From positions 4,210 to 68,209 of the forward strand of contig JANTFX010000005.1 in the NCBI GenBank assembly GCA_024763215.1: a DNA stretch of 64,000 nt, given 5' to 3'. This document shows, one piece after another, positions 3,565 through 53,296 of this stretch (position 1 is the first letter of the stretch; each line of letters begins with the position of its first letter). A program made the translations under genes and the position numbers. Under the pieces are notes generated by a model. It did no database searches. It worked only from the letters and a program-made list of their open reading frames with translations, and was not told the origin of the DNA. The stretch comes from Candidatus Krumholzibacteriia bacterium. Lineage in GTDB: Bacteria > Krumholzibacteriota > Krumholzibacteriia > LZORAL124-64-63.

Positions 3565-4686
3565 ATGAACCCCACCGCCCGGGACAGCTACCACGTGCGC
3601 CGTTTCCGGACCGGCGACCGGCCCGCCATCATCGCCCTGCTGCGGCAGGTGTGGGGGGAGGACTTCGCCGCCCTGATGGACGAGCTGTGGGACTGGAAAT
3701 ACGACCGCAACCCGCACAACCCGCCCGGTGGCCACAACTCCATGATCCTGTGCCGGGGCGATGAGCCCGTGGGTTTTCTGGGCATGATGTCGGCCCGGCT
3801 CAAGGTGGGTGACCGGGTCGTGCCCATGGCCTGGGGCTCGGAGCTGGCGGTGCACCCGGAACACCGGGGCCAGGGGTACCGGGTCTTCGTCAACATCGGA
3901 AAGGATGCCGAGAAGCTCATTGCCGGCACCGCCCGCACACGCGAGCTGGCGGGGCTGCCGCTGGGGTTCGGCGCCTTCGACATCACGCGGATGATCAGCC
4001 ACAAGCTCATCCTGCGTCCGCGCCGTTTCCTGACCGCCAAGACCGGCAACGCGGTTCTGGGCGCGGTGGGCGCGCCGCTGGTTTCCCTGGCGGTCACCGC
4101 TGCCAGCCTGCGTGCACGCGGCTGGTCCGGGGCGAAGGACGATCTGGAGCCGGTGGGTGATTTCGGCCCCGCCTTCGACGACCTGTGGGACGAGGTGGCG
4201 CCCGGATACGCGGTGATCCCCGTGCGCGACCGCGCCTTTCTGCAGTGGCGTTTCCGTGCTTGCCCGCTGCGGCGGCACACCGTGCTGGCCGCCTATCGCG
4301 GGGGCAACCTGCGCGGGTATGCCGTGCTGCGCCGGGAGGACCGCGGCGGGTTGCGCCGGGCCTACGTGGTCGACATGCTGGCTGGCGCCGGGGACAGGCA
4401 GACCTGGGACCGGCTCCTGCGGGGGGCTGCAAGGTACGCCCGCGGTGAGGGCGCGGATATCCTGACCTTCACCACCGCCGCCGCCTGGGATCTGGGCGCG
4501 ACCTTGCGCCGGCACGGGTACCTGTTCCGTTCCCGCCGGGTCTGGATCACCGGCCACGGCGGGTGCCGCCCGGAGTACGAATCCCTGCGGGAGCACCTTG
4601 AACATGCGGCCTCGCTGGTGATGACCCGGGCCGATACGGACCTGGATTTCAACTACCGGCTGGAGGAGGGAACCGATGGGGATTGA
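3565..4686 (+). CDS. GNAT-superfamily acyltransferase, 374 aa with a two-domain architecture
   Basis: ATG at 3565, 8 nt after the FAAL stop. The N-terminal GNAT-like core reads ...AVHPEHRGQGYRVF. Placed in the lipid operon. Confidence 0.6.
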   Translation: MNPTARDSYHVRRFRTGDRPAIIALLRQVWGEDFAALMDELWDWKYDRNPHNPPGGHNSMILCRGDEPVGFLGMMSARLKVGDRVVPMAWGSELAVHPEHRGQGYRVFVNIGKDAEKLIAGTARTRELAGLPLGFGAFDITRMISHKLILRPRRFLTAKTGNAVLGAVGAPLVSLAVTAASLRARGWSGAKDDLEPVGDFGPAFDDLWDEVAPGYAVIPVRDRAFLQWRFRACPLRRHTVLAAYRGGNLRGYAVLRREDRGGLRRAYVVDMLAGAGDRQTWDRLLRGAARYARGEGADILTFTTAAAWDLGATLRRHGYLFRSRRVWITGHGGCRPEYESLREHLEHAASLVMTRADTDLDFNYRLEEGTDGD

Positions 4687-8682: not shown

Positions 8683-10797
8683 ATGTCCAAGTATGCAAAG
8701 GCGATGCTGATCATGAGTCTGACCGTCGGGATGATCGCAGGTTGTTCGCGGGGGCCCAAGCCACCGGAAGCGGCCGTCAAACCCCATGAGATCGTGGCTC
8801 CGGCAGGCACCCGGGTCGATGACTACTACTGGCTCAACCAGCGCGACGACCCCGAGGTGCTGGCCTACCTCAACGCCGAGAACGCGTACCTGGACGAGGT
8901 CATGGCCCCGACCCGGGCGCTGCAGGACACCCTGCTGGCCGAGATGAAGGGCCGCATCAAGCAGGATGACGCCTCGGCGCCCTATTTCCTGAAGGGCTAC
9001 TACTACTACACGCGGTACGAAAAAGGCGGTGAGTATCCGCTGTACTGCCGGCGCCAGGGCAGCATGACCGCCCCCGAGCAGGTCATGCTCGACGGCAACG
9101 CCATGGGCAAGGACGAGGGCTATTTCGCCCTGCGTGGGGTGGAGGTCAGCCCCGATACGAAGCTGGTGGTCTACGGGGTCGATACCGTGGGGCGCCGGTT
9201 CTACGACCTGCACGTGCGCGACCTGACCACCGGCCGGGATCTGCCCGACGTGATCGCTCAGGTCACCGGCAACGTGACCTGGGCCATGGACAACCGGACC
9301 CTGTTCTACGCCCGGCAGGACCCCGAGACCCTGCGTTCGTACCAGATCCTGCGCCACGAGCTGGGCACAGACCCCGGCCAGGACGTTCTGGTGTACCAGG
9401 AGGACGACGACACCTTCACCTGCAGCGTCGACCGCACCAAATCCGACCGCTACCTGGTGATCGACTGCGAGCAGACCCTCAGCACCGAATCGCGCATCCT
9501 GGAGGCGGACAATCCCACCGGGAAGTTCCGGGTGTTCCAGCCGCGCACGCGGGATCTCGAGTATCACATCGACCACCAGGGCGACCGCTTTTTGATCCGC
9601 ACCAACCTGGACGCGGCCAACTTCCGGCTCATGGAGTGCCCGCTGGACCGCACGGATTTCGTGGCCTGGCACGAGGTGATCCCCCACCGGCAGGACGTGC
9701 TGCTGGAGGACTTCGATGTGTTCGCCGACTGGATCGCCCTGGAGGAGCGGTTCGGGGGCCTGACGCATATCCGGGTCAAGTCCGATGACGGGGCGCTGGA
9801 CAAGATCCTCGACTTCGACGACCCCACCTGGGCCGCCTGGATCGGCTACAACCCGCAGATGAAGACCGACGTCCTGCGCTACGGCTATTCGTCCCTGACC
9901 ACGCCCTACACCACCTACGACTACGATCTGGGCACCGGCCGGCGGACTCTCGTCAAGCAGCAGGAGGTTCTGGGCGGGTTCGATCCGGCGAACTACCAGT
10001 CCGAGTACCTGATGGTGCCTGCCCGGGACGGGGTGAAGGTGCCGGTCTCGCTGGTCTACCGCAAGGGCTTCCAGCCCGACGGCACCCACCCGTTGCTTCT
10101 GTACGGCTACGGCTCCTACGGCATCAGCATGAGCGCCCGCTTCAATTCCCAGGTGCTCAGCCTGCTCGACCGCGGCTTCGTCTACGCCATCGCCCACGTG
10201 CGCGGCGGCCAGGAGATGGGCCGCTGGTGGTACGAGGACGGCAAGCTGCTGAAGAAGAAGAACACCTTTTACGACTTCATCGACTGCGCCAGGTACCTGG
10301 CCGACCACAAGTACACCGCCACCGACCGCATGTTCGCCATGGGCGGGTCGGCCGGCGGCCTGCTCATGGGTGCGGTGGTGAACATGGCGCCGGACCTGTG
10401 GCGGGGCGTCATCGCCCACGTGCCGTTCGTGGACGTGGTCACCACCATGCTGGACGAGTCCATACCGCTGACGACCGGCGAGTTCGACGAGTGGGGCAAC
10501 CCCAAGGAGAAGGTCTACTACGACTACATGCTGAGCTACTCGCCGTACGACAACGTCACCCGGCAGGAATACCCGGCCATGCTGGTCACCACCGGCCTGC
10601 ACGACAGCCAGGTGCAGTACTTCGAACCCGCCAAGTGGGTGGCCAAGCTGCGCAAGCTGAAGAAGGGTGACAACATCCTGCTGCTGAAGATCAACATGGA
10701 AGCCGGCCACGGCGGCGCCTCGGGGCGCTTCCGGCGCCTGCAGGAGACGGCCCTGAGCTACGCGTTCATGCTGGATCAGCTGGGCATCGAACAGTAG
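8683..10797 (+). CDS. ptrB: oligopeptidase B / S9 prolyl-oligopeptidase-family serine peptidase, lipoprotein
   Basis: N-terminal lipobox LTVGMIAGC. DDYYWLNQRDDPEVLAYLNAENAY matches the PtrB propeller N-terminus. The catalytic region GGSAGGLLMG carries the GxSxGG serine motif. Confidence 0.8.
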   Translation: MSKYAKAMLIMSLTVGMIAGCSRGPKPPEAAVKPHEIVAPAGTRVDDYYWLNQRDDPEVLAYLNAENAYLDEVMAPTRALQDTLLAEMKGRIKQDDASAPYFLKGYYYYTRYEKGGEYPLYCRRQGSMTAPEQVMLDGNAMGKDEGYFALRGVEVSPDTKLVVYGVDTVGRRFYDLHVRDLTTGRDLPDVIAQVTGNVTWAMDNRTLFYARQDPETLRSYQILRHELGTDPGQDVLVYQEDDDTFTCSVDRTKSDRYLVIDCEQTLSTESRILEADNPTGKFRVFQPRTRDLEYHIDHQGDRFLIRTNLDAANFRLMECPLDRTDFVAWHEVIPHRQDVLLEDFDVFADWIALEERFGGLTHIRVKSDDGALDKILDFDDPTWAAWIGYNPQMKTDVLRYGYSSLTTPYTTYDYDLGTGRRTLVKQQEVLGGFDPANYQSEYLMVPARDGVKVPVSLVYRKGFQPDGTHPLLLYGYGSYGISMSARFNSQVLSLLDRGFVYAIAHVRGGQEMGRWWYEDGKLLKKKNTFYDFIDCARYLADHKYTATDRMFAMGGSAGGLLMGAVVNMAPDLWRGVIAHVPFVDVVTTMLDESIPLTTGEFDEWGNPKEKVYYDYMLSYSPYDNVTRQEYPAMLVTTGLHDSQVQYFEPAKWVAKLRKLKKGDNILLLKINMEAGHGGASGRFRRLQETALSYAFMLDQLGIEQ

Positions 10798-10843
10798 CCC
10801 ATAGCCGAGCCGCCTGCCGGCGGCCTGGTCTTCAAACCTGAGA

Positions 10844-10873
10844 GCACGGGCCGGAATAGGCCCGTGCTTTTTT
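10844..10873 (+). terminator. rho-independent terminator after ptrB
   Basis: A 9-bp GC stem gcacgggcc / ggcccgtgc with a 6-nt loop, followed by TTTTTT. Confidence 0.55.
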
Positions 10874-10940
10874 GTGGGGGCAGGAATGAGTTTTTAGAAT
10901 AATTTTTGTAAATAAAAAATATATCGTGTCGATAATCATA

Positions 10941-10968
10941 TGTTATAATAGATAAGCAATTATTGCTT
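10941..10968 (+). promoter_or_regulatory. extended -10 (TGtTATAAT) plus a perfect palindrome AAGCAAT-T-ATTGCTT inside an AT-rich island upstream of the S8 protease gene
   Basis: Positions 10880-10970 are about 80 % AT in a 67 % GC genome. tgttataat lies at 10941-10949. The 7-1-7 inverted repeat lies at 10954-10968, between the -10 element and the start codon. Confidence 0.35.
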
Positions 10969-11004
10969 CCAATCATGCAACCTGAAGCTGGACAAAAGGA
11001 TGTG

Positions 11005-20973: not shown

Positions 20974-21002
20974 TTGATTCTGGTGTATCATTGAGATATA
21001 AG
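20974..21002 (+). promoter_or_regulatory. sigma70-like promoter: TTGATT, 17 nt, TATAAG
   Basis: Lies in the AT-rich intergenic region about 90 nt upstream of the 21089 ATG. GGAGG sits 7 nt before that ATG. Confidence 0.35.
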
Positions 21003-21088
21003 TTGACGGATTCCCATCTCCGGGTTCGCTCACCGGGCAGGGGGATAGTCGTCATGCAACATCAGCTCACGTCTTCAGGAGGTTTACC

Positions 21089-21778
21089 ATGAAGCGCCTT
21101 GCCATTGTTTTCGCCCTCTTGCTGGTCACCCTGGGTGCCCAGTCCGTATTCGCCGTCGCGGCCCCCACCATCTTCGACATCCAGAACGGCATGTACGCCG
21201 AGGGTGACACCCTGACCATCGAGAACGTGACTGTCGTGGCGACGCGCTACAACGGCATCTGGGTCGCCGAGGCCCCCTTCGGCGCCTACAACGGCATCTG
21301 GGTCTACATGGGCTCGACGACCAACGTGCCCGGTGACATCGTGGACGTCACCGGTGTCTACAAGGAATACTACGGCCTGACCGAGTTGAGCAGTGCCACT
21401 GCTACCGTGACCGGTTCCGGCCCCGTGCCCGCACCGACCTACATGAGTGCGGCGTCCCTGGTTGCCGATCCCGAGCCCTGGGAAAGCTGCGCGGTTCAGA
21501 TCTTCAACGGTCTGGGCGTCGTTGAGACCAGTGACGTGCTGGGCCACGGCTACTGGACCTGCCAGGCGTTTGATGGCAGCGTCGTGAATTTTGACGACTA
21601 CTTCTACGATGACACCACGGTGCTGAAGGGCCAGTGCTACAACAACGCCACCGGTATCTGGGAGTACACCTGGGGCGAGTTCCGCATGGAGCCCTTTGTC
21701 GACGGGTTCCCCCTGGTCGATTGCGCAGTTGACAACGATGCCGCCAGCTTCGGCGCGGTCAAGTCGCTGTTCCGGTAA
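21089..21778 (+). CDS. secreted hypothetical protein (229 aa) with a signal peptide and an internal YNGIWV repeat
   Basis: Strong ribosome-binding site GGAGG and signal peptide MKRLAIVFALLLVTLGAQSVFA. A terminator follows the gene. Confidence 0.6.
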   Translation: MKRLAIVFALLLVTLGAQSVFAVAAPTIFDIQNGMYAEGDTLTIENVTVVATRYNGIWVAEAPFGAYNGIWVYMGSTTNVPGDIVDVTGVYKEYYGLTELSSATATVTGSGPVPAPTYMSAASLVADPEPWESCAVQIFNGLGVVETSDVLGHGYWTCQAFDGSVVNFDDYFYDDTTVLKGQCYNNATGIWEYTWGEFRMEPFVDGFPLVDCAVDNDAASFGAVKSLFR

Positions 21779-21799
21779 AACCTGGTTTACCTGCTTTCG

Positions 21800-21827
21800 G
21801 GGCCCGGCCACGTGCCGGGCCCTTTTT
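21800..21827 (+). terminator. rho-independent terminator
   Basis: Stem ggcccggc / gccgggcc, 5-nt loop, then TTTTT. Confidence 0.55.
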
Positions 21828-21918
21828 GGCAATAAACGAGAGGCAGGCGGGGTAGAATTCCTGTTGAGCGCGGCTGCTTTTGCACCGACAATCCCCGGAT
21901 GCGGGACAGCAGGAAGGG

Positions 21919-22599
21919 ATGCCCATGCCGCCTCTCGGCTTTTTCATCGTCTTGGCCGCCATTGCCGCCTTCGGCATCTATTCGTGGCGCAAGGATCAAC
22001 AGCGCAAGCAGGCCCTGCAGGAATGGGCCGCCGGCCGCCGCTGGCGGTATGCAGCCAAGGGCTTGCGTGATTTGCGTACCCGGTTTGCGGGCCTGAAGAT
22101 CCTGGATCGGGGCCACTCCCGCGGCAGCGGCAATGCCATCACCGGCAACCTGGACGGCCATGAGGCCATCTGTCTGGACTACAAGTACGTCACCGGTTCG
22201 GGCAAGAACCGCACGACCCACCGGATCGGCATGGTGATCCTGGACTGCGGGTTCCCCACCATCCCCCTGCTGATCCGCAGGGAGCACGCCTTCGACAAGG
22301 TGGGCGAGTTCCTGGGCGCCGACGACATCGATTTCGAGTCGGGCGAGTTCAGCCGCAAGTTCTACGTCAAGTCCAACGACCGCAAATGGGCCTACGACAT
22401 CATCCACGGCCGGACCATGGATTACCTGATGCAGGCGCCGGCGGTGAGCATCGAGTTCGGCATGGGGGAGATCGCGGTCTACAGAAACGGGTACAACGAC
22501 CCGGCCCGGCACGAGGAGGCCCTCGCGGTCGCCCGCAGGATGCTGGATTTGATTCCCGATTACGTGATCAAGCAGATGAAAGGCGGATCCAAGCCATGA
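21919..22599 (+). CDS. DUF3137-like membrane protein (LemA partner)
   Basis: AGGAAGGG ribosome-binding site before the ATG at 21919. N-terminal transmembrane helix PLGFFIVLAAIAAFGIY. The stop overlaps the LemA start (ATGA). Confidence 0.55.
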   Translation: MPMPPLGFFIVLAAIAAFGIYSWRKDQQRKQALQEWAAGRRWRYAAKGLRDLRTRFAGLKILDRGHSRGSGNAITGNLDGHEAICLDYKYVTGSGKNRTTHRIGMVILDCGFPTIPLLIRREHAFDKVGEFLGADDIDFESGEFSRKFYVKSNDRKWAYDIIHGRTMDYLMQAPAVSIEFGMGEIAVYRNGYNDPARHEEALAVARRMLDLIPDYVIKQMKGGSKP

Positions 22600-49047: not shown

Positions 49048-50655
49048 ATGAGCGATGCACCGATAACCGCGCCTGTACCCGTCGAACTGCACGATACCCT
49101 CAGCGGGAAGAAATGCCCCCTGCAGACCATCGCCCCGGGCAAGGTGGGCATGTACTGCTGCGGCCCCACAGTGTACGACTTGACCCACGTCGGCAACGCG
49201 CGCGCCGCCCTGGTGCCCGATGTTATCGTGCGTTTCCTGCGGCATGAGGGCTACCAGGTCAAGTACGTGCGCAACATCACGGACATCGACGACAAGATCA
49301 TCGCGCGCAGCAGGGAAGCCGGTGTCCCGGCGAGCGAACTGGCCGACCGCTACGCCGACGAATACCATCGCGACATGGAAGCGCTGAACATCCTGCCTCC
49401 GGATGTCGAGCCGCGGGTGCAGGACCATATCCCCCAGATCATCGCGCTGGTCGCGACCCTCGTGGACAAGGGGCTGGCCTATGCGGTGGACGGGGACGTT
49501 TACTACCGGGTGGCGGCGTTCAAGGGCTACGGCAAGCTGAGCAAGCGCCACCTGGAGGAGATGCTCGAGGGCGCCGGCAGCCGCATCGACGTGGACGAGC
49601 GCAAGGAGTCGCCCCTGGATTTCGCGCTGTGGAAGGCAGCCAAGCCGGGCGAGCCTTCATGGGACAGCCCGTGGGGCGCGGGCCGGCCCGGCTGGCACAT
49701 CGAGTGCTCGGCCATGAGCTCGACCCACCTCGGTGACAGCTTCGACATCCACGGCGGCGGCCGGGACCTGGTGTTCCCGCACCACGAGAACGAGATCGCC
49801 CAGAGCCAGGGCGCCCACGGCGAGGACACCTTCGCCCGCTACTGGGTGCACAACGGGTTCATCAACTTCGCCGGCGAGAAGATGTCCAAGAGCCTGGGCA
49901 ACTTCTTCACGACCCGCGAGATCACCGCCCTGTACCCGCCCGAATCCCTGCGCTACTTCCTGCTGACGGTGCACTACCGCAGCGGCCTGAACTTCGAGGT
50001 CGAGGTGCCGTGCCCGGCGTGCGGGGCGCTGCTGGGCAAGAGCGAACAGGAGTCCGGCGTGTGCGAGGCCTGCGGCGCGCATACCGAATCCGATGTCCTG
50101 CGCCGGCGCGTGCGCTTTCCCGGCCTGGAGGAGGCCGACGACCGCCTGGCCTACATTTATCGTACCTTGCGCCAGGCGCGCGCTTTTCTGGCCGCGGCCA
50201 AGAAACCCGGTGGTGAGGAGCCCGTGACCGAGCACATCGCCGGCATGCTGCCCGCCTTCGTGTCGCACATGCGCAACGATTTCAACACCGGCGGCGCCCT
50301 GGGCGCGCTGAGCAAGCCCCTGGCCGAGGCCAACAGCCTGCTTGCCTCGGGCAAGGGCGTGGGCAAGGCGGCCCGCTACCTCAGCCTGGAGCGGTTCGAG
50401 ACGGATATGGCCCAGGTGGCCGAGGTCCTGGGCTGCTTCGGGCAGGATCCCGACCAGTGGTTGCAGCAGCGGCGCGACATGAAGGCCGCGCGCACCGGCC
50501 TTGACATCGACCAGGTCGAGGCGCTCGTCCGGAAGCGCCAGGAGGCGCGTGCGGCGAAGGACTGGGCCGCGGCCGACGCCATCCGCGACGAGCTGGCCGC
50601 TTTGGGGGTGGCGGTCATGGATGGCCCCGAGGGCTCGGTCTGGGATTTCAAATAA
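49048..50655 (+). CDS. cysS: cysteine--tRNA ligase with a Cys4 zinc-ribbon insertion
   Basis: [16 protein letters not shown] (HIGH region), KMSKSLGN, and the zinc ligand contexts of CysRS. An extra segment [22 protein letters not shown] lies between the catalytic and anticodon domains (535 aa versus about 465). Confidence 0.85.
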
Positions 50656-50713
50656 GATTTTTCGGCCTGGCTGCGGAGGCACCGCGGCGGAAATCTGTGT
50701 TGATTGTTTGGTA

Positions 50714-50757
50714 TGAATTTTAGCGTGAAATATTAGAACACCCGCATATGTGTATGT
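50714..50757 (+). repeat. left direct repeat of the HNH cassette
   Basis: See the mobile_element entry. Confidence 0.6.
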
Positions 50758-50826
50758 CTGACCCTCGTACAGGTCTTGCTTGATCTGGGAAGGACCCCTT
50801 CCTTCCCGGAAATGTGACACCGAAAG

Positions 50827-51903
50827 ATGACGGACAAGTTATTTCCCGACGCTGTGGCGAGTCATGTCGAATCCCTGGCACTGACCCCGGCTGAAGCCAG
50901 CCTCCACAACAACTTCGTGGTTTCGGCGAAATCCTTGCGAAGGGATTTCGTGCGCATGGTTTATTACCTGTTGCAGATCAAGGAACATTTGATCTATCGC
51001 AAGCTTGGCTTCAAGACAATGTCAAATTATGGAAAGGCCGTGGCCGGGCTGACTCCACGCCAGGTTTCAGACTTCCTCACGCTGGCGCGCCGCCTGCCCA
51101 GATTCCCCGAAGTTGAGGCGGCCTTGGCCGAGGGGAACCTGTCCTGGTCCCATGCCCGGATCATCACATCCAAAGCCGATCCTGAGCAACAATTGGAATG
51201 GATCAAGGCAGCCGGCACCTTGACCGTCGAGCAGTTGGCAGCTACGCCGTCGCATTCGGTTCCCAATGTTTTTCCGGAAAAGAAATCGCCGGAGTCGCAG
51301 CCTTCTCGTGATGGAGGTCTGCCCATGAAGCCAAAGCCCCAAAAGCCGAAAGTATTACCTGAAACGACCCTGCAGTATGTCAATCTGCGGCTGACGGGCA
51401 GCCAATATGCCGAATTGTCCCGCCTGCTGGAACAGGGGCAAGCCGCTACCGGCCTGTCCCGTGAAGAGATCGTTCTTCAAGCCCTGGAAAACGCAGCAAC
51501 GGGAAAAACGCAGCATGAACAATCGGCCTACTTGCAGGTGATCCTCGTGTGTCCTGATTGTGGTGAGGCGGTGTTACCGACCAGCCGGGGCGAGATCCGC
51601 GCGCCTCAGGCCTTGCTGAAGGCAGCTCATTGCGATGCGATTATCGAGGATTCCACTGGGGCACGCAAACATACCATCCCGCCGCGTATACGTCGGCAAG
51701 CACTGAAACGCGCCCGTTACCAATGCGAAAGGCCTGGATGTTCCAATACCGGGTTTCTGCAGATCCACCATCGCGTGCCCAGAGCTGGTGGTGGTAGCCC
51801 AGACCTGGACAATCTGGTGGTTCTTTGCTCTCGGTGTCATCAGCAATTGCACCATGATGAGGAATCAGCAAGGGCAGCCTTGAAACAGGTACCGGATATT
51901 TGA
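50827..51903 (+). CDS. DUF222-like N-terminal domain plus C-terminal HNH endonuclease
   Basis: C-terminal HNH zinc-finger nuclease motif CERPGCSNTGFLQIHHRVPRAGGGSPDLDNLVVLCSRCHQQLH. A second Cys pair, CPDCG, lies upstream. Confidence 0.7.
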   Translation: MTDKLFPDAVASHVESLALTPAEASLHNNFVVSAKSLRRDFVRMVYYLLQIKEHLIYRKLGFKTMSNYGKAVAGLTPRQVSDFLTLARRLPRFPEVEAALAEGNLSWSHARIITSKADPEQQLEWIKAAGTLTVEQLAATPSHSVPNVFPEKKSPESQPSRDGGLPMKPKPQKPKVLPETTLQYVNLRLTGSQYAELSRLLEQGQAATGLSREEIVLQALENAATGKTQHEQSAYLQVILVCPDCGEAVLPTSRGEIRAPQALLKAAHCDAIIEDSTGARKHTIPPRIRRQALKRARYQCERPGCSNTGFLQIHHRVPRAGGGSPDLDNLVVLCSRCHQQLHHDEESARAALKQVPDI

Positions 51904-51928
51904 GCGGGACGCATCATGATCGATGGGA

Positions 51929-51973
51929 CGAATAATTAGCATGAGGTATTAGAACACCCGCATATGTGTATGT
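51929..51973 (+). repeat. right direct repeat of the HNH cassette
   Basis: See the mobile_element entry. Confidence 0.6.
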
Positions 51974-51991
51974 TTCGAGCTTTATTCCGGG

Positions 51992-53296
51992 TCAGGCAGT
52001 CGGCGGTATGGGCTCGGGGACGGTCACGGTTTTCAGCGCGGCGTCGATGTCTTTCAGGCCGTTGCCGGTGACCATGACCGCGACCTGATCGTGATCGCCG
52101 ATCAGGCCCTGAGCACGGGCGGACAGCGCGCCGGCCAGGCCCGCGGCGCCGCTGGGCTCGGCGAATACCCCGGCCAGGCGCGCCAGCAGGCCGATGGCCT
52201 CCAGGATGGCTTCATCGGGCACGCTCAGGAAGGCGCCGCCGGTGCGGGCGACGTACTTCCAGGCCTTCACGCGGTTGCGGGGGATGCCCACGCTGATCGA
52301 GTCGGCGAGGGTGTTGGGTTGCACCGGCTCGATGGCCGCGAGGATCTCCCGGCCGCTCATGGCGGCGGGCTCGGCGGTGCATGCGCCCCACGCGGTGGCC
52401 AGGGGCGCGGCGCCCGCGGCCTGCACCCCGATCACCCGCGGCAAGCGGTCGATGACTCCCAGGGTGTGCAACTCCTGTAGCCCCTTGGCCACCGACGAGA
52501 TGATGCACCCGTCGCCCACCGGCACCATGACCACGTCGGGAGCAGCGCCGGCGGTTCCCGGGGCGCCGCCCCAATCACGCACCAGCTCCAGAATTGCTGT
52601 TTTCTTGCCCTCGACCAGCAGGGGGTTGTGGGCGCAGTTGCGGCTGTACCAGCGGTTCGCCGTGATTTGCCCCAGGGAAATCTCGAAGGTCTGGTCGTAG
52701 GTGCCGTCCACGCGCACCAGGTTCGCGCCGTGGATCAGCAGCTGGGCGAGCTTGGCGCGCGGGGCGGCCGCGGGCACGAAGATGCTGCTGCGCAGGCCGG
52801 CGCGGGCGGCCAACACCGCCAGGGAGGCCGCGGCGTTGCCGGTCGAGGCGCAGGCGATGTGATCCAACCCCAGCTGCACGGCGCGCGCGACGGCCACCGC
52901 CGCGGCGCGGTCCTTGAGGCTTCCCGAGGGCAGCCGGGTGTCGTCCTTCAGGACCAGTGTGCGCAGGCCGAGGTGGTCCGCAAGGCGCGGCGCGGCCACC
53001 GGCGGCAGCCCGGCCACGTTCCAGCCGTGATGATCAGCTTCCGGCTGCACCGGCAGCAGGTCGGCGAAGCGCCACAGGCCCGATGCACCGGGGTGGGCGG
53101 ACCACGCCGCTGCTTCGGTCCGCGTCAGCGCCGCCAAGGCCTGCAGGTCGTATTCCGCGTCCAGGATGCCGTCGATGCCGCAGTCCTCGCACACGAAGCC
53201 CTCGTAGTCGGTGCCGTACATGCGGCCGCAGACCACGCAGCGGCAGCCCCGCCAGTGGGGGTTGGTGTGGACGGCGGGAAGGCGTGCGGCGGTCAT
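51992..53296 (-). CDS. ThrC-family (fold-type II) PLP-dependent enzyme with an N-terminal Cys4 zinc ribbon
   Basis: The PLP-lysine motif PSGSLKDRAAA matches the ThrC SFKDRG motif. Gly-rich loop GNAAASLA. N-terminal CRCVVCG...CEDCG. Sits 5 nt downstream of the YgeW-like gene. Confidence 0.65.
   Translation of the reverse strand: MTAARLPAVHTNPHWRGCRCVVCGRMYGTDYEGFVCEDCGIDGILDAEYDLQALAALTRTEAAAWSAHPGASGLWRFADLLPVQPEADHHGWNVAGLPPVAAPRLADHLGLRTLVLKDDTRLPSGSLKDRAAAVAVARAVQLGLDHIACASTGNAAASLAVLAARAGLRSSIFVPAAAPRAKLAQLLIHGANLVRVDGTYDQTFEISLGQITANRWYSRNCAHNPLLVEGKKTAILELVRDWGGAPGTAGAAPDVVMVPVGDGCIISSVAKGLQELHTLGVIDRLPRVIGVQAAGAAPLATAWGACTAEPAAMSGREILAAIEPVQPNTLADSISVGIPRNRVKAWKYVARTGGAFLSVPDEAILEAIGLLARLAGVFAEPSGAAGLAGALSARAQGLIGDHDQVAVMVTGNGLKDIDAALKTVTVPEPIPPTA

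Follow-up and report, generated by a model that had tools for sequence, protein, structure and literature searches.

Among the closest described counterparts of the locus reported here are the REP13E12 repeats of Mycobacterium tuberculosis and the DUF222/HNH genes of other Actinobacteria. To our knowledge, these '13E12' genes are abundant and, after 25 years, have no known function or mode of spread; our literature search returned no described function or mechanism for DUF222 or REP13E12. In the present study, we analysed a 64,000-nt stretch of contig JANTFX010000005.1 from a Candidatus Krumholzibacteriia bacterium (hereafter, the window), which carries a single HNH nuclease gene in an AT-rich cassette bordered by two direct repeats. 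Like REP13E12, the cassette and its relatives are units of about 1.3-1.5 kb with essentially one gene, the protein combines an N-terminal helical domain of DNA-binding type with a C-terminal zinc-finger HNH, and the elements are dispersed and, in some genomes, multi-copy. The cassette differs from REP13E12 in that it lies in another phylum, its DUF222 match is sub-threshold, its own branch of the family (group A) is low-copy and a prophage link is lacking. It also has flanking direct repeats and palindromes, which are, as far as we know, absent from the published description of REP13E12. The cassette is filed here as a selfish HNH gene cassette within the 13E12 superfamily and not as a member of REP13E12.

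Other described systems share parts of this organisation. Free-standing homing endonuclease genes, such as mob and seg of phage T4 and that of the HNH nickase I-HmuI, are also single nuclease genes with their own control signals between conserved genes, and they likewise show presence or absence at a fixed site, foreign composition and decayed copies; they are also more diverged than their flanks, as the cassette appears to be in relatives. The marks of the homing class found here were the HNH domain and presence or absence at one site in relatives (empty in L090, L092 and L093; L001-L098 etc. denote loci in the relatives' genomes, and WIN the window's cassette). However, the cassette is chromosomal in a bacterium and not carried by a phage or organelle, and it is bracketed by direct repeats, which are not a product of homing. 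REP-RAYT units (REPtrons) resemble it as low-copy, vertically kept nuclease genes with their own lineage-specific palindromic repeats, and in the sister branch of the cassette's family (group B) the palindrome TTGCGCCGGCGCAA is also found away from the gene. In contrast to these units, the enzyme is of the HNH class instead of an HUH/Y1 transposase, the repeats on the two sides of the gene are direct and not inverted, and the window repeat is not dispersed within the 64 kb. The dimeric HNH restriction endonucleases KpnI, Hpy99I and PacI, together with McrA, have the same ββα-metal HNH core, Cys4 zinc site and link to dyad-symmetric DNA sequences; the cassette differs in that no methyltransferase partner was found, its N-terminal helix-turn-helix (HTH) architecture is another one and the palindromes adjoin the gene. 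Assignment to a demonstrable restriction system was rejected, as were a REP-RAYT unit and IscB. An insertion sequence or transposon was also rejected, with no transposase, terminal repeats that are direct instead of inverted, and no target duplication at the mapped ends of the group B paralogs.

The cassette is a compositionally foreign single-gene insertion between housekeeping genes. The G+C fraction was 0.49-0.59 over 50600-52000, compared with 0.68-0.75 on both sides and about 0.70 in the genome. This pocket of reduced G+C spans the distance from the cysS stop codon (50655) to the stop of the convergent PALP gene (51992), and the cassette lies 12 points under its flanks. Its gene content is one open reading frame (ORF), at 50827-51903. 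The features of the locus are as follows.

49048..50655, + strand: cysS (cysteinyl-tRNA synthetase), the left host flank (PF01406, 422 bits).
50656..50689, right limit approximate, no strand: G+C-rich remnant of the host intergenic spacer, read from the sequence.
50690..51975, limits approximate (~15 nt), + strand: inserted AT-rich cassette of ~1.3 kb, delimited by G+C and by its absence from the L090, L092 and L093 junction.
50720..50757, exact part 50731-50757, + strand: left copy of the direct repeat, with a degenerate dyad centred on CATATG.
50785..50811, + strand: stable leader hairpin GGGAAGGA-CCCC-TTCCTTCCC, 16-42 nt before the ATG, overlapping the family motif CCCGGAA.
50827..51903, + strand: HNH nuclease gene, 358 aa (Pfam PF01844, alignment of relatives, AlphaFold model).
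51936..51973, exact part 51947-51973, + strand: right copy of the direct repeat, 32 nt past the HNH stop and 18 nt short of the PALP stop.
51992..53296, - strand: PALP / threonine-synthase-like gene, the right host flank (PF00291, 220 bits), convergent with cysS.

The cassette is an insertion, as close relatives have cysS and the PALP gene directly adjacent. The PALP orthologs that adjoin cysS in relatives are 75-80% identical. Only a 30-nt spacer parts the PALP gene from the cysS gene next to it in L090, and 150 nt part the two in L092 and L093; none of the three has an HNH gene there. The cysS genes next to the L090 and L092 empty sites are 83-84% identical to that of the window, the flanking proteins of the cysS/PALP relatives are 76-90% identical, and the remaining gene order is kept on both sides. 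A preliminary description of this DNA, made from its letters, had reported the low-G+C pocket and the position between cysS and an unrelated metabolic cluster, and had pointed to empty sites in relatives as one check of its reading; the pocket, the position and the empty sites were all found. It had also named a conserved arrangement across distant relatives as counter-evidence, and this was not seen, the junction in relatives being empty or differently filled. The first bases of the spacer remnant, GATTTTTCGGCC, are similar by eye to AATTTTTGTAAGGCC after the cysS stop at the L092 empty site, and the spacers are too diverged for the insertion ends to be placed to the base. Genes with a FlgD_ig domain were observed in the same kind of spacer, namely an unrelated one between cysS and the PALP gene in L091 (7378-9291) and one beside the HNH gene in L001 (6739-6933); such gene junctions seem to be general landing sites.

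The two repeat copies are 38 nt long, stand in direct orientation and agree at 35 of 38 positions, including the 27-mer TATTAGAACACCCGCATATGTGTATGT, which is exact at 50731-50757 and 51947-51973. An exact match of 27 nt arose in none of 100 shuffles. The 27-mer has no third site in the window at up to 3 mismatches, and looser searches (BLAST, k-mers, up to 6 mismatches in 23) gave no third repeat copy in the window either. On the 5' side of the 38 nt, in-register identity was 9/20 by manual count, which is not significant. The preliminary description had given a 44-bp repeat with 25 identical bases; the repeat is real, its solid part is 38 nt with 27 exact, and the 5' extension falls away. The search for further copies that it suggested gave no second gene and no third repeat copy within the 64 kb. 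The repeat has 37% G+C, like the cassette, as against 57-58% in host spacers (manual counts). Its dyad, centred on CATATG, has 7/10 complementary pairs (manual count) and is the weakest case among the border repeats. The repeat was also considered as an RNA hairpin or terminator, and this was dropped, as its fold was not significant against shuffles. Because the window's own dyad is degenerate and its hairpin not significant, the palindrome argument rests on the relatives.

Comparison of the loci showed that, in relatives, the border repeats are part of the element and under selection for dyad symmetry. L010, L011 and L098 share a common context, their proteins are 79-86% identical (L098 and L011, 79%), and their upstream regions can be aligned. 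A framework of GGAAwAwTTG...AAAC, palindrome and then rTTTyGGTCACrAAGmTGTGA is kept in this trio, and within it the palindrome core is exchanged from CCCCGTCCGGACGGGG in L011 to TGCCTGACGTCAGGCT in L098, with 5 compensatory pairs. The 120 nt upstream of the gene are 90% identical between L010 and L011, compared with 73-81% at the fourfold sites of the HNH and the long flanking alpha-amylase genes. Only L011 has a downstream copy, another gene being found at that place in L010 and L098; that copy therefore arose later, by duplication of the 5' module. L011 and the window show one pattern here: agreement between the downstream and the upstream copy is best in the palindrome and 3' of it, and worst on the 5' side. 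Palindromes were also shared by related genes in unrelated contexts: the TTGCAGCCGGCTGCAA palindrome occurs in both L018 and L021; a 46-59-nt palindrome, GGCCCCAGAAAGT..., occurs in L024 and L077, with inner arms that differ and complementarity that is kept; and GGTACCACGTGGTACC upstream in L026 is related to GGTCCCACGTGGGACC downstream in L027. From composition and architecture, we extend this to the window, whose repeats would likewise be element-borne, homology being assumed. A motif that lies ahead of the start codon in both branches of the family (see below) points the same way. Taken together, the weight of evidence favours repeats that are element-borne over repeats derived from the target.

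To score border repeats across the family, 450 nt of upstream and 600 nt of downstream sequence were compared for each gene and their best ungapped match was taken; pseudo-genes set at other positions of these loci and of the window served as controls. A score of at least 17 was reached in 6 of 21 testable group A loci (WIN, 29; L011, 28; L012, 17; L023, 24; L024, 47; L083, 23), compared with 1 of 142 controls; in group B, 1 of about 50 loci reached it. The repeat sequence is different in each element, every one contains a palindrome, and longer palindromes go with longer repeats, over a range of 17-59 nt. A perfect stem of 8 bp or more was found in 21 of 55 group A flank windows and 40 of 337 control windows, and 14 of those 21, compared with 7 of those 40, had no loop. 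Perfect zero-loop palindromes of at least 16 bp were accordingly enriched about 12-fold (14/55 vs 7/337). Dyad symmetry that runs through the centre would be expected of a double-stranded site read by a dimer, or of a process at the DNA level, and not of an RNA hairpin. Solo copies of three group A palindromes were sought in 93 loci, and none was found away from HNH genes; the single metagenome match of the L024/L077 palindrome was an unrelated gut hairpin and was discarded. Three further observations concern these flanks. In L095 (group A), the palindrome GCCGCACGTGCGGC occurs once in the codons of a conserved C-terminal 'AARAA' (4017-4037) and again 31 nt past the stop (4090-4110), where it is preceded by TGATTGG. 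The repeat copies of L083 (1743-1768 and 3007-3030) differ only at the central four bases, TTGA and TCAA, which are mutual reverse complements, and it looks as if a hairpin tip had been flipped. One control window, in some locus among L010-L089, had a direct-repeat score of 338, that is, a large direct duplication lies in the flanks of a family locus.

The region ahead of the gene carries further signals. The leader hairpin of the window folds with -19 kcal/mol (z -3.5), and 0/200 shuffles folded equally well. A motif of the CCTCCCGGAA type was found upstream of the start in 10 of 27 group A and 20 of 53 group B loci, against a background of 0.11 per scanned window, and it lies 15-45 nt ahead of the start codon in both branches. 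No sigma-70-like promoter match and no convincing terminator match were obtained. The window's upstream region gave no significant alignment with that of any other element (shuffle z <=1.5); a homology between the window repeat and the L010/L011 module, suggested by MAFFT, was dropped at a shuffle z of 0.4. At the empty sites, the best matches to the repeat had p ~0.09-0.14, none of them significant.

The protein encoded by the cassette consists of an N-terminal HTH domain (residues ~20-135), a Pro-rich linker, a two-helix segment, a CxxC zinc ribbon and an HNH domain that carries a CxxC...CxxC zinc site. The HNH domain PF01844 was matched with 40.2 bits (cut-off 21.4), ParB-HTH with 18.4 bits and DUF222 (PF02720) with 17.0 bits, which is under the Pfam cut-off of 24.4. 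Weak DUF222 matches were present in 10 of 22 close relatives (best E 1.3e-5), and only some more distant relatives reached the cut-off (P0207, 26.0 bits). The DUF222/HNH architecture of the preliminary description is thus upheld in its C-terminal HNH with zinc site, and its DUF222 part stays below threshold; the likeness to REP13E12 drawn there extends to a dispersed, multi-copy family in related genomes and stops at DUF222, and the 64-kb window holds one copy of the gene. An alignment of 22 relatives showed H314, H315, N329, H338 and H342 to be invariant, together with the zinc cysteines C300, C305, C334 and C337 and a second CxxC at 242/245. The AlphaFold model (mean predicted local distance difference test score, pLDDT, 70; 80-94 in the N-terminal and HNH domains) has four parts: the N-terminal domain is helical, the Pro-rich linker that follows is disordered, and a segment of two helices leads to the zinc ribbon with the HNH domain. 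Pfam gave no support for a ribbon-helix-helix domain in the middle segment. The domain matches were of HNH and HTH type only, and neither a recognised transposase (DDE, HUH, serine or tyrosine recombinase) nor an HUH/Y1 nuclease of the IS200/IS605 type was among them. An IscB / HEARO nuclease was tried and rejected, as there is no RuvC, NF040563 covers the HNH segment only (45 bits vs a cut-off of 175) and Rfam matched no known RNA family in the cassette.

The window cassette belongs to a large, uncharacterised nuclease-cassette family of Krumholzibacteriota, in which matching palindromes at the borders are frequent. Its closest relatives, about 22 proteins at 38-53% identity, all come from Krumholzibacteriota or from metagenome-assembled genomes named only 'bacterium'. 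A scan of GTDB with one genome per species gave 379 relatives, and a profile search of 1.84 billion representatives gave 550 clusters at E <=1e-30 and 5,868 at E <=1e-10. No full-length relative was present in 50,697 phage or 72,556 plasmid records, and classical DUF222 genes gave one match only on plasmids. An all-against-all comparison of loci split the family into the window's branch, group A, and the sister branch, group B. Members of group A are 40-55% identical to each other and have 1-2 copies per genome. Group B proteins have ~30% identity to that of the window, and their genomes hold many paralogs each, up to 10 loci, with identities of 65-98% (L054/L061, 98%; L053/L059/L066, 89-93%; L034/L035/L037, ~85%). 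Among these paralogs, homology extends from ~115-205 nt upstream of the ATG to ~100-120 nt past the stop, giving a unit of 1.3-1.5 kb, and no target-site duplication was seen at their precisely mapped ends. Frameshifted copies were found at L042, L072 and L081. The neighbours of group A genes are cysS and PALP for the window, a nucleotidyltransferase and an alpha-amylase gene for L010, L011 and L098, acetate kinase and PhzF for L012, and a murA-like and a translation-factor-like gene for L019, L020 and L022. The site differs between lineages; because it is kept across species inside a lineage, the group A gene persists vertically.

The nuclease gene is intact and under selection. Purifying selection is indicated because, between L010 and L011, codon positions 1+2 of the HNH gene are 92% identical and fourfold sites 73%. 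Fourfold-site identity was lower in the cassette than in its flanks between L019/L020 and L022 (0.55-0.61 vs 0.82-0.87), between L026 and L072 (0.37 vs 0.61-0.67) and between L010 and L011 (0.73 vs 0.81-0.88), a contrast that is partly confounded. A sliding-window plot of L019, L020 and L022 showed a diverged block that begins and ends sharply where the host genes end. These results are no more than suggestive; they fit horizontal replacement, in which a more distant allele took the place of the cassette at its site. Immediately upstream of the HNH gene, and divergent from it, lies a nucleotidyltransferase gene in L010/L011 (3226-3665) and L098 (2025-2745), which in L098 is paired with a HEPN gene in a toxin-antitoxin-like arrangement. 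Fourfold identity in that nucleotidyltransferase gene was 0.65 vs 0.81-0.88 in the other flanking genes, the HNH gene being likewise more diverged.

A further palindrome was observed in the sister branch. The sequence TTGCGCCGGCGCAA, a perfect palindrome of 14 nt, has 1-5 occurrences in each of 27 group B loci, which include L029, L033, L038, L039, L046, L051-L053, L059, L065-L067, L069, L071, L073, L074, L078, L079, L082, L085, L088 and L089. Inside the HNH gene it stands at 2-3 conserved places and in two reading frames, being read as 'LAPAQV' twice and 'QLRRRKS' once, and it is also found in non-coding DNA just past the stop and upstream. Its density per kb was 0.62 in the gene, 0.38 within 300 nt of it and 0.012 elsewhere. 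This pattern indicates selection at the level of the DNA sequence. The 3' segment of the gene is present a second time, in degenerate form, just past the stop in L053 (2438-2599), L066 (5045-5277) and L065 (5135-5285), and the copied stretch spans the first to the second internal palindrome. Two solo modules, each consisting of TTTTTGAyGT, 6-7 nt and then CACTTGCGCCGGCGCAAG, were observed in L052 (6760-6800 and 8245-8285), in direct orientation and 1.5 kb apart. Their distance from the HNH gene is 1.8-3.3 kb; they flank ORFs without Pfam matches and adjoin an AbiEii toxin gene.

The explanation that we put forward is a compact selfish cassette of ~1.3 kb, inserted into the spacer of the convergent cysS and threonine-synthase-like genes. 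It would encode a sequence-specific nuclease that joins an HTH domain for DNA binding to a zinc ribbon and a catalytic HNH domain and whose family is distant kin of the DUF222/HNH '13E12' proteins. Both direct repeats would be part of the element and not of the target, the upstream copy as a 5' control module with a probable promoter region and a dyad-symmetric site, and the downstream copy as a secondary duplicate of that module. The border repeats are probably sites for the cassette's own nuclease, and the HTH-HNH protein may recognise the dyads as a dimer, binding and possibly cutting them. With the upstream site between the likely AT-rich promoter and the leader hairpin, such binding could serve autoregulation of the nuclease, which is potentially toxic, or its insulation from the flanking genes. 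Nicking or breakage of cognate sites, with the repeats supplying short homology, might lead to copying of the cassette by recombinational repair, either from allele to allele after DNA uptake or occasionally into new sites. The cassette would thereby undergo homing-like spread, followed by vertical persistence and eventual decay. It would thus unite the life cycle of a homing endonuclease with border sites that recall REP-RAYT units.

Several results weigh against this explanation. No mobility step was observed, and we know of no HNH enzyme that acts as a transposase. The window's own dyad is degenerate and the fold of its repeat was no better than shuffles (z -1.4 and +0.2), while homology of the window repeat to the relatives' modules is assumed. 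The window holds one gene copy and no solo repeat, and the repeat was not found in metagenomes of the Joint Genome Institute (JGI). A clear flanking repeat is missing in 15 of 21 group A loci; the repeat is therefore not essential for retention of the gene. The fourfold-site contrast between cassette and flanks is inflated by the much higher G+C at third codon positions of the flanking genes. As transposase activity is not known for HNH enzymes and a clear repeat is lacking from the majority of group A loci, we consider the whole package, namely a selfish HNH cassette of the 13E12/DUF222 superfamily with element-borne border repeats and homing-like spread, to be evenly balanced between right and wrong, and we hold the mobility mechanism, taken alone, with less confidence than that.

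Other explanations can be set beside the selfish cassette. The nuclease may serve the host, for example as a domesticated, McrA-like type IV restriction or defence enzyme that was acquired horizontally and is now immobile, with the repeats as an operator or terminator that controls a toxic gene. Purifying selection, retention of the site across species (L010/L011/L098 and L019/L020/L022) and the 1-2 copies per genome in group A agree with such a role, and the strong leader hairpin with the conserved 5' motif suggests regulation. However, PADLOC and PDB matches were limited to the ~40-60-residue HNH core, with neither a modified-base reader domain nor partner defence genes. In addition, the sister branch has multiplied inside genomes, frameshifted copies and variable presence of the kind seen here typify selfish genes, and in relatives the cassette appears more diverged than its flanks; we consider host service doubtful, although no other alternative seems to us more probable. 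We give slightly less credence to a target-site duplication, in which the cassette landed in the palindromic bidirectional terminator of two convergent genes and staggered cuts duplicated the hairpin, so that each gene kept a terminator. Four of the six repeat-bearing elements (WIN, L012, L023 and L024) do lie between convergent genes, only 8-44 nt part the downstream copy from the convergent gene's stop in all of the six but L083, whose flanks are unreadable, and longer repeats go with longer palindromes. The window's right repeat with its flank also weakly resembles the L092 empty site (GCATATGTGTATGTTTCGAGC vs GCATACGTG--TGCGTCGAGC, p ~0.09). Against this stand the composition of the window repeat, which is that of the cassette and not of host spacers, and the lack of a significant repeat match at any empty site. 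Moreover, the upstream module of L010/L011/L098 is conserved with the gene and has a downstream copy in one lineage only, the upstream neighbour of L011 is divergent, so no terminator is needed there, and the same palindromes accompany related genes into unrelated contexts.

A bolder reading than the selfish cassette, which we think unlikely, is that the HTH-HNH protein and its dyad border sites form a self-propagating unit of an undescribed kind. The nuclease would cut or nick its own palindromes beside the gene and, in the sister branch, inside the gene, and would thus drive copying of the cassette and of solo palindrome modules through recombinational repair. Far less probable than any of these is an attachment site for a phage or integrative element of the kind linked to REP13E12, the 38-nt copies being attL/attR-like scars. 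Integration does leave direct repeats around a foreign segment, and there is a distant DUF222/HNH kinship with the 13E12 proteins. However, the segment is one gene, no integrase or other phage gene lies between or beside the repeats, no full-length relative is found among the phage and plasmid records, and the repeat sequence is different in each element. The preliminary description had mentioned a role in phage attachment, for which we found no support, the neighbours being housekeeping genes; for a phiRv2-type prophage, the lack of phage genes beside the cassette indicates only a site that is unoccupied. The lowest probability of all falls to a chance match or assembly artefact. The one point in its favour is that the source is a metagenome-assembled contig, but the exact 27-nt match did not arise in shuffles and the architecture recurs in independent assemblies of other genomes.

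Two observations elsewhere in the window are recorded for completeness. Lower G+C was also seen in two 1-kb bins, 10001-11000 (0.605) and 21001-22000 (0.612), the window average being ~0.67. A guanidine-III riboswitch match on the - strand at 50489-50553, within the cysS coding region, scored 27.7 bits vs a gathering score of 36 and is probably spurious.

The locus and its relatives offer a cleaner system than the mycobacterial repeats, with a dated insertion, known empty sites and element-borne modules whose palindromes co-vary, and the sister branch adds a 14-nt palindrome written into the gene in two reading frames. The question of what these nucleases recognise and how they move thereby becomes testable, by exposing the protein to the border sites of its cassette. 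Should the cautious reading hold, the cassette would be one more selfish nuclease gene, of practical use for tracing genome plasticity in a phylum about which little is known. Should the reading as a self-propagating unit hold, the cassette would parallel the REP-RAYT relationship with an HNH enzyme and would provide a function for the widespread DUF222/13E12 family.

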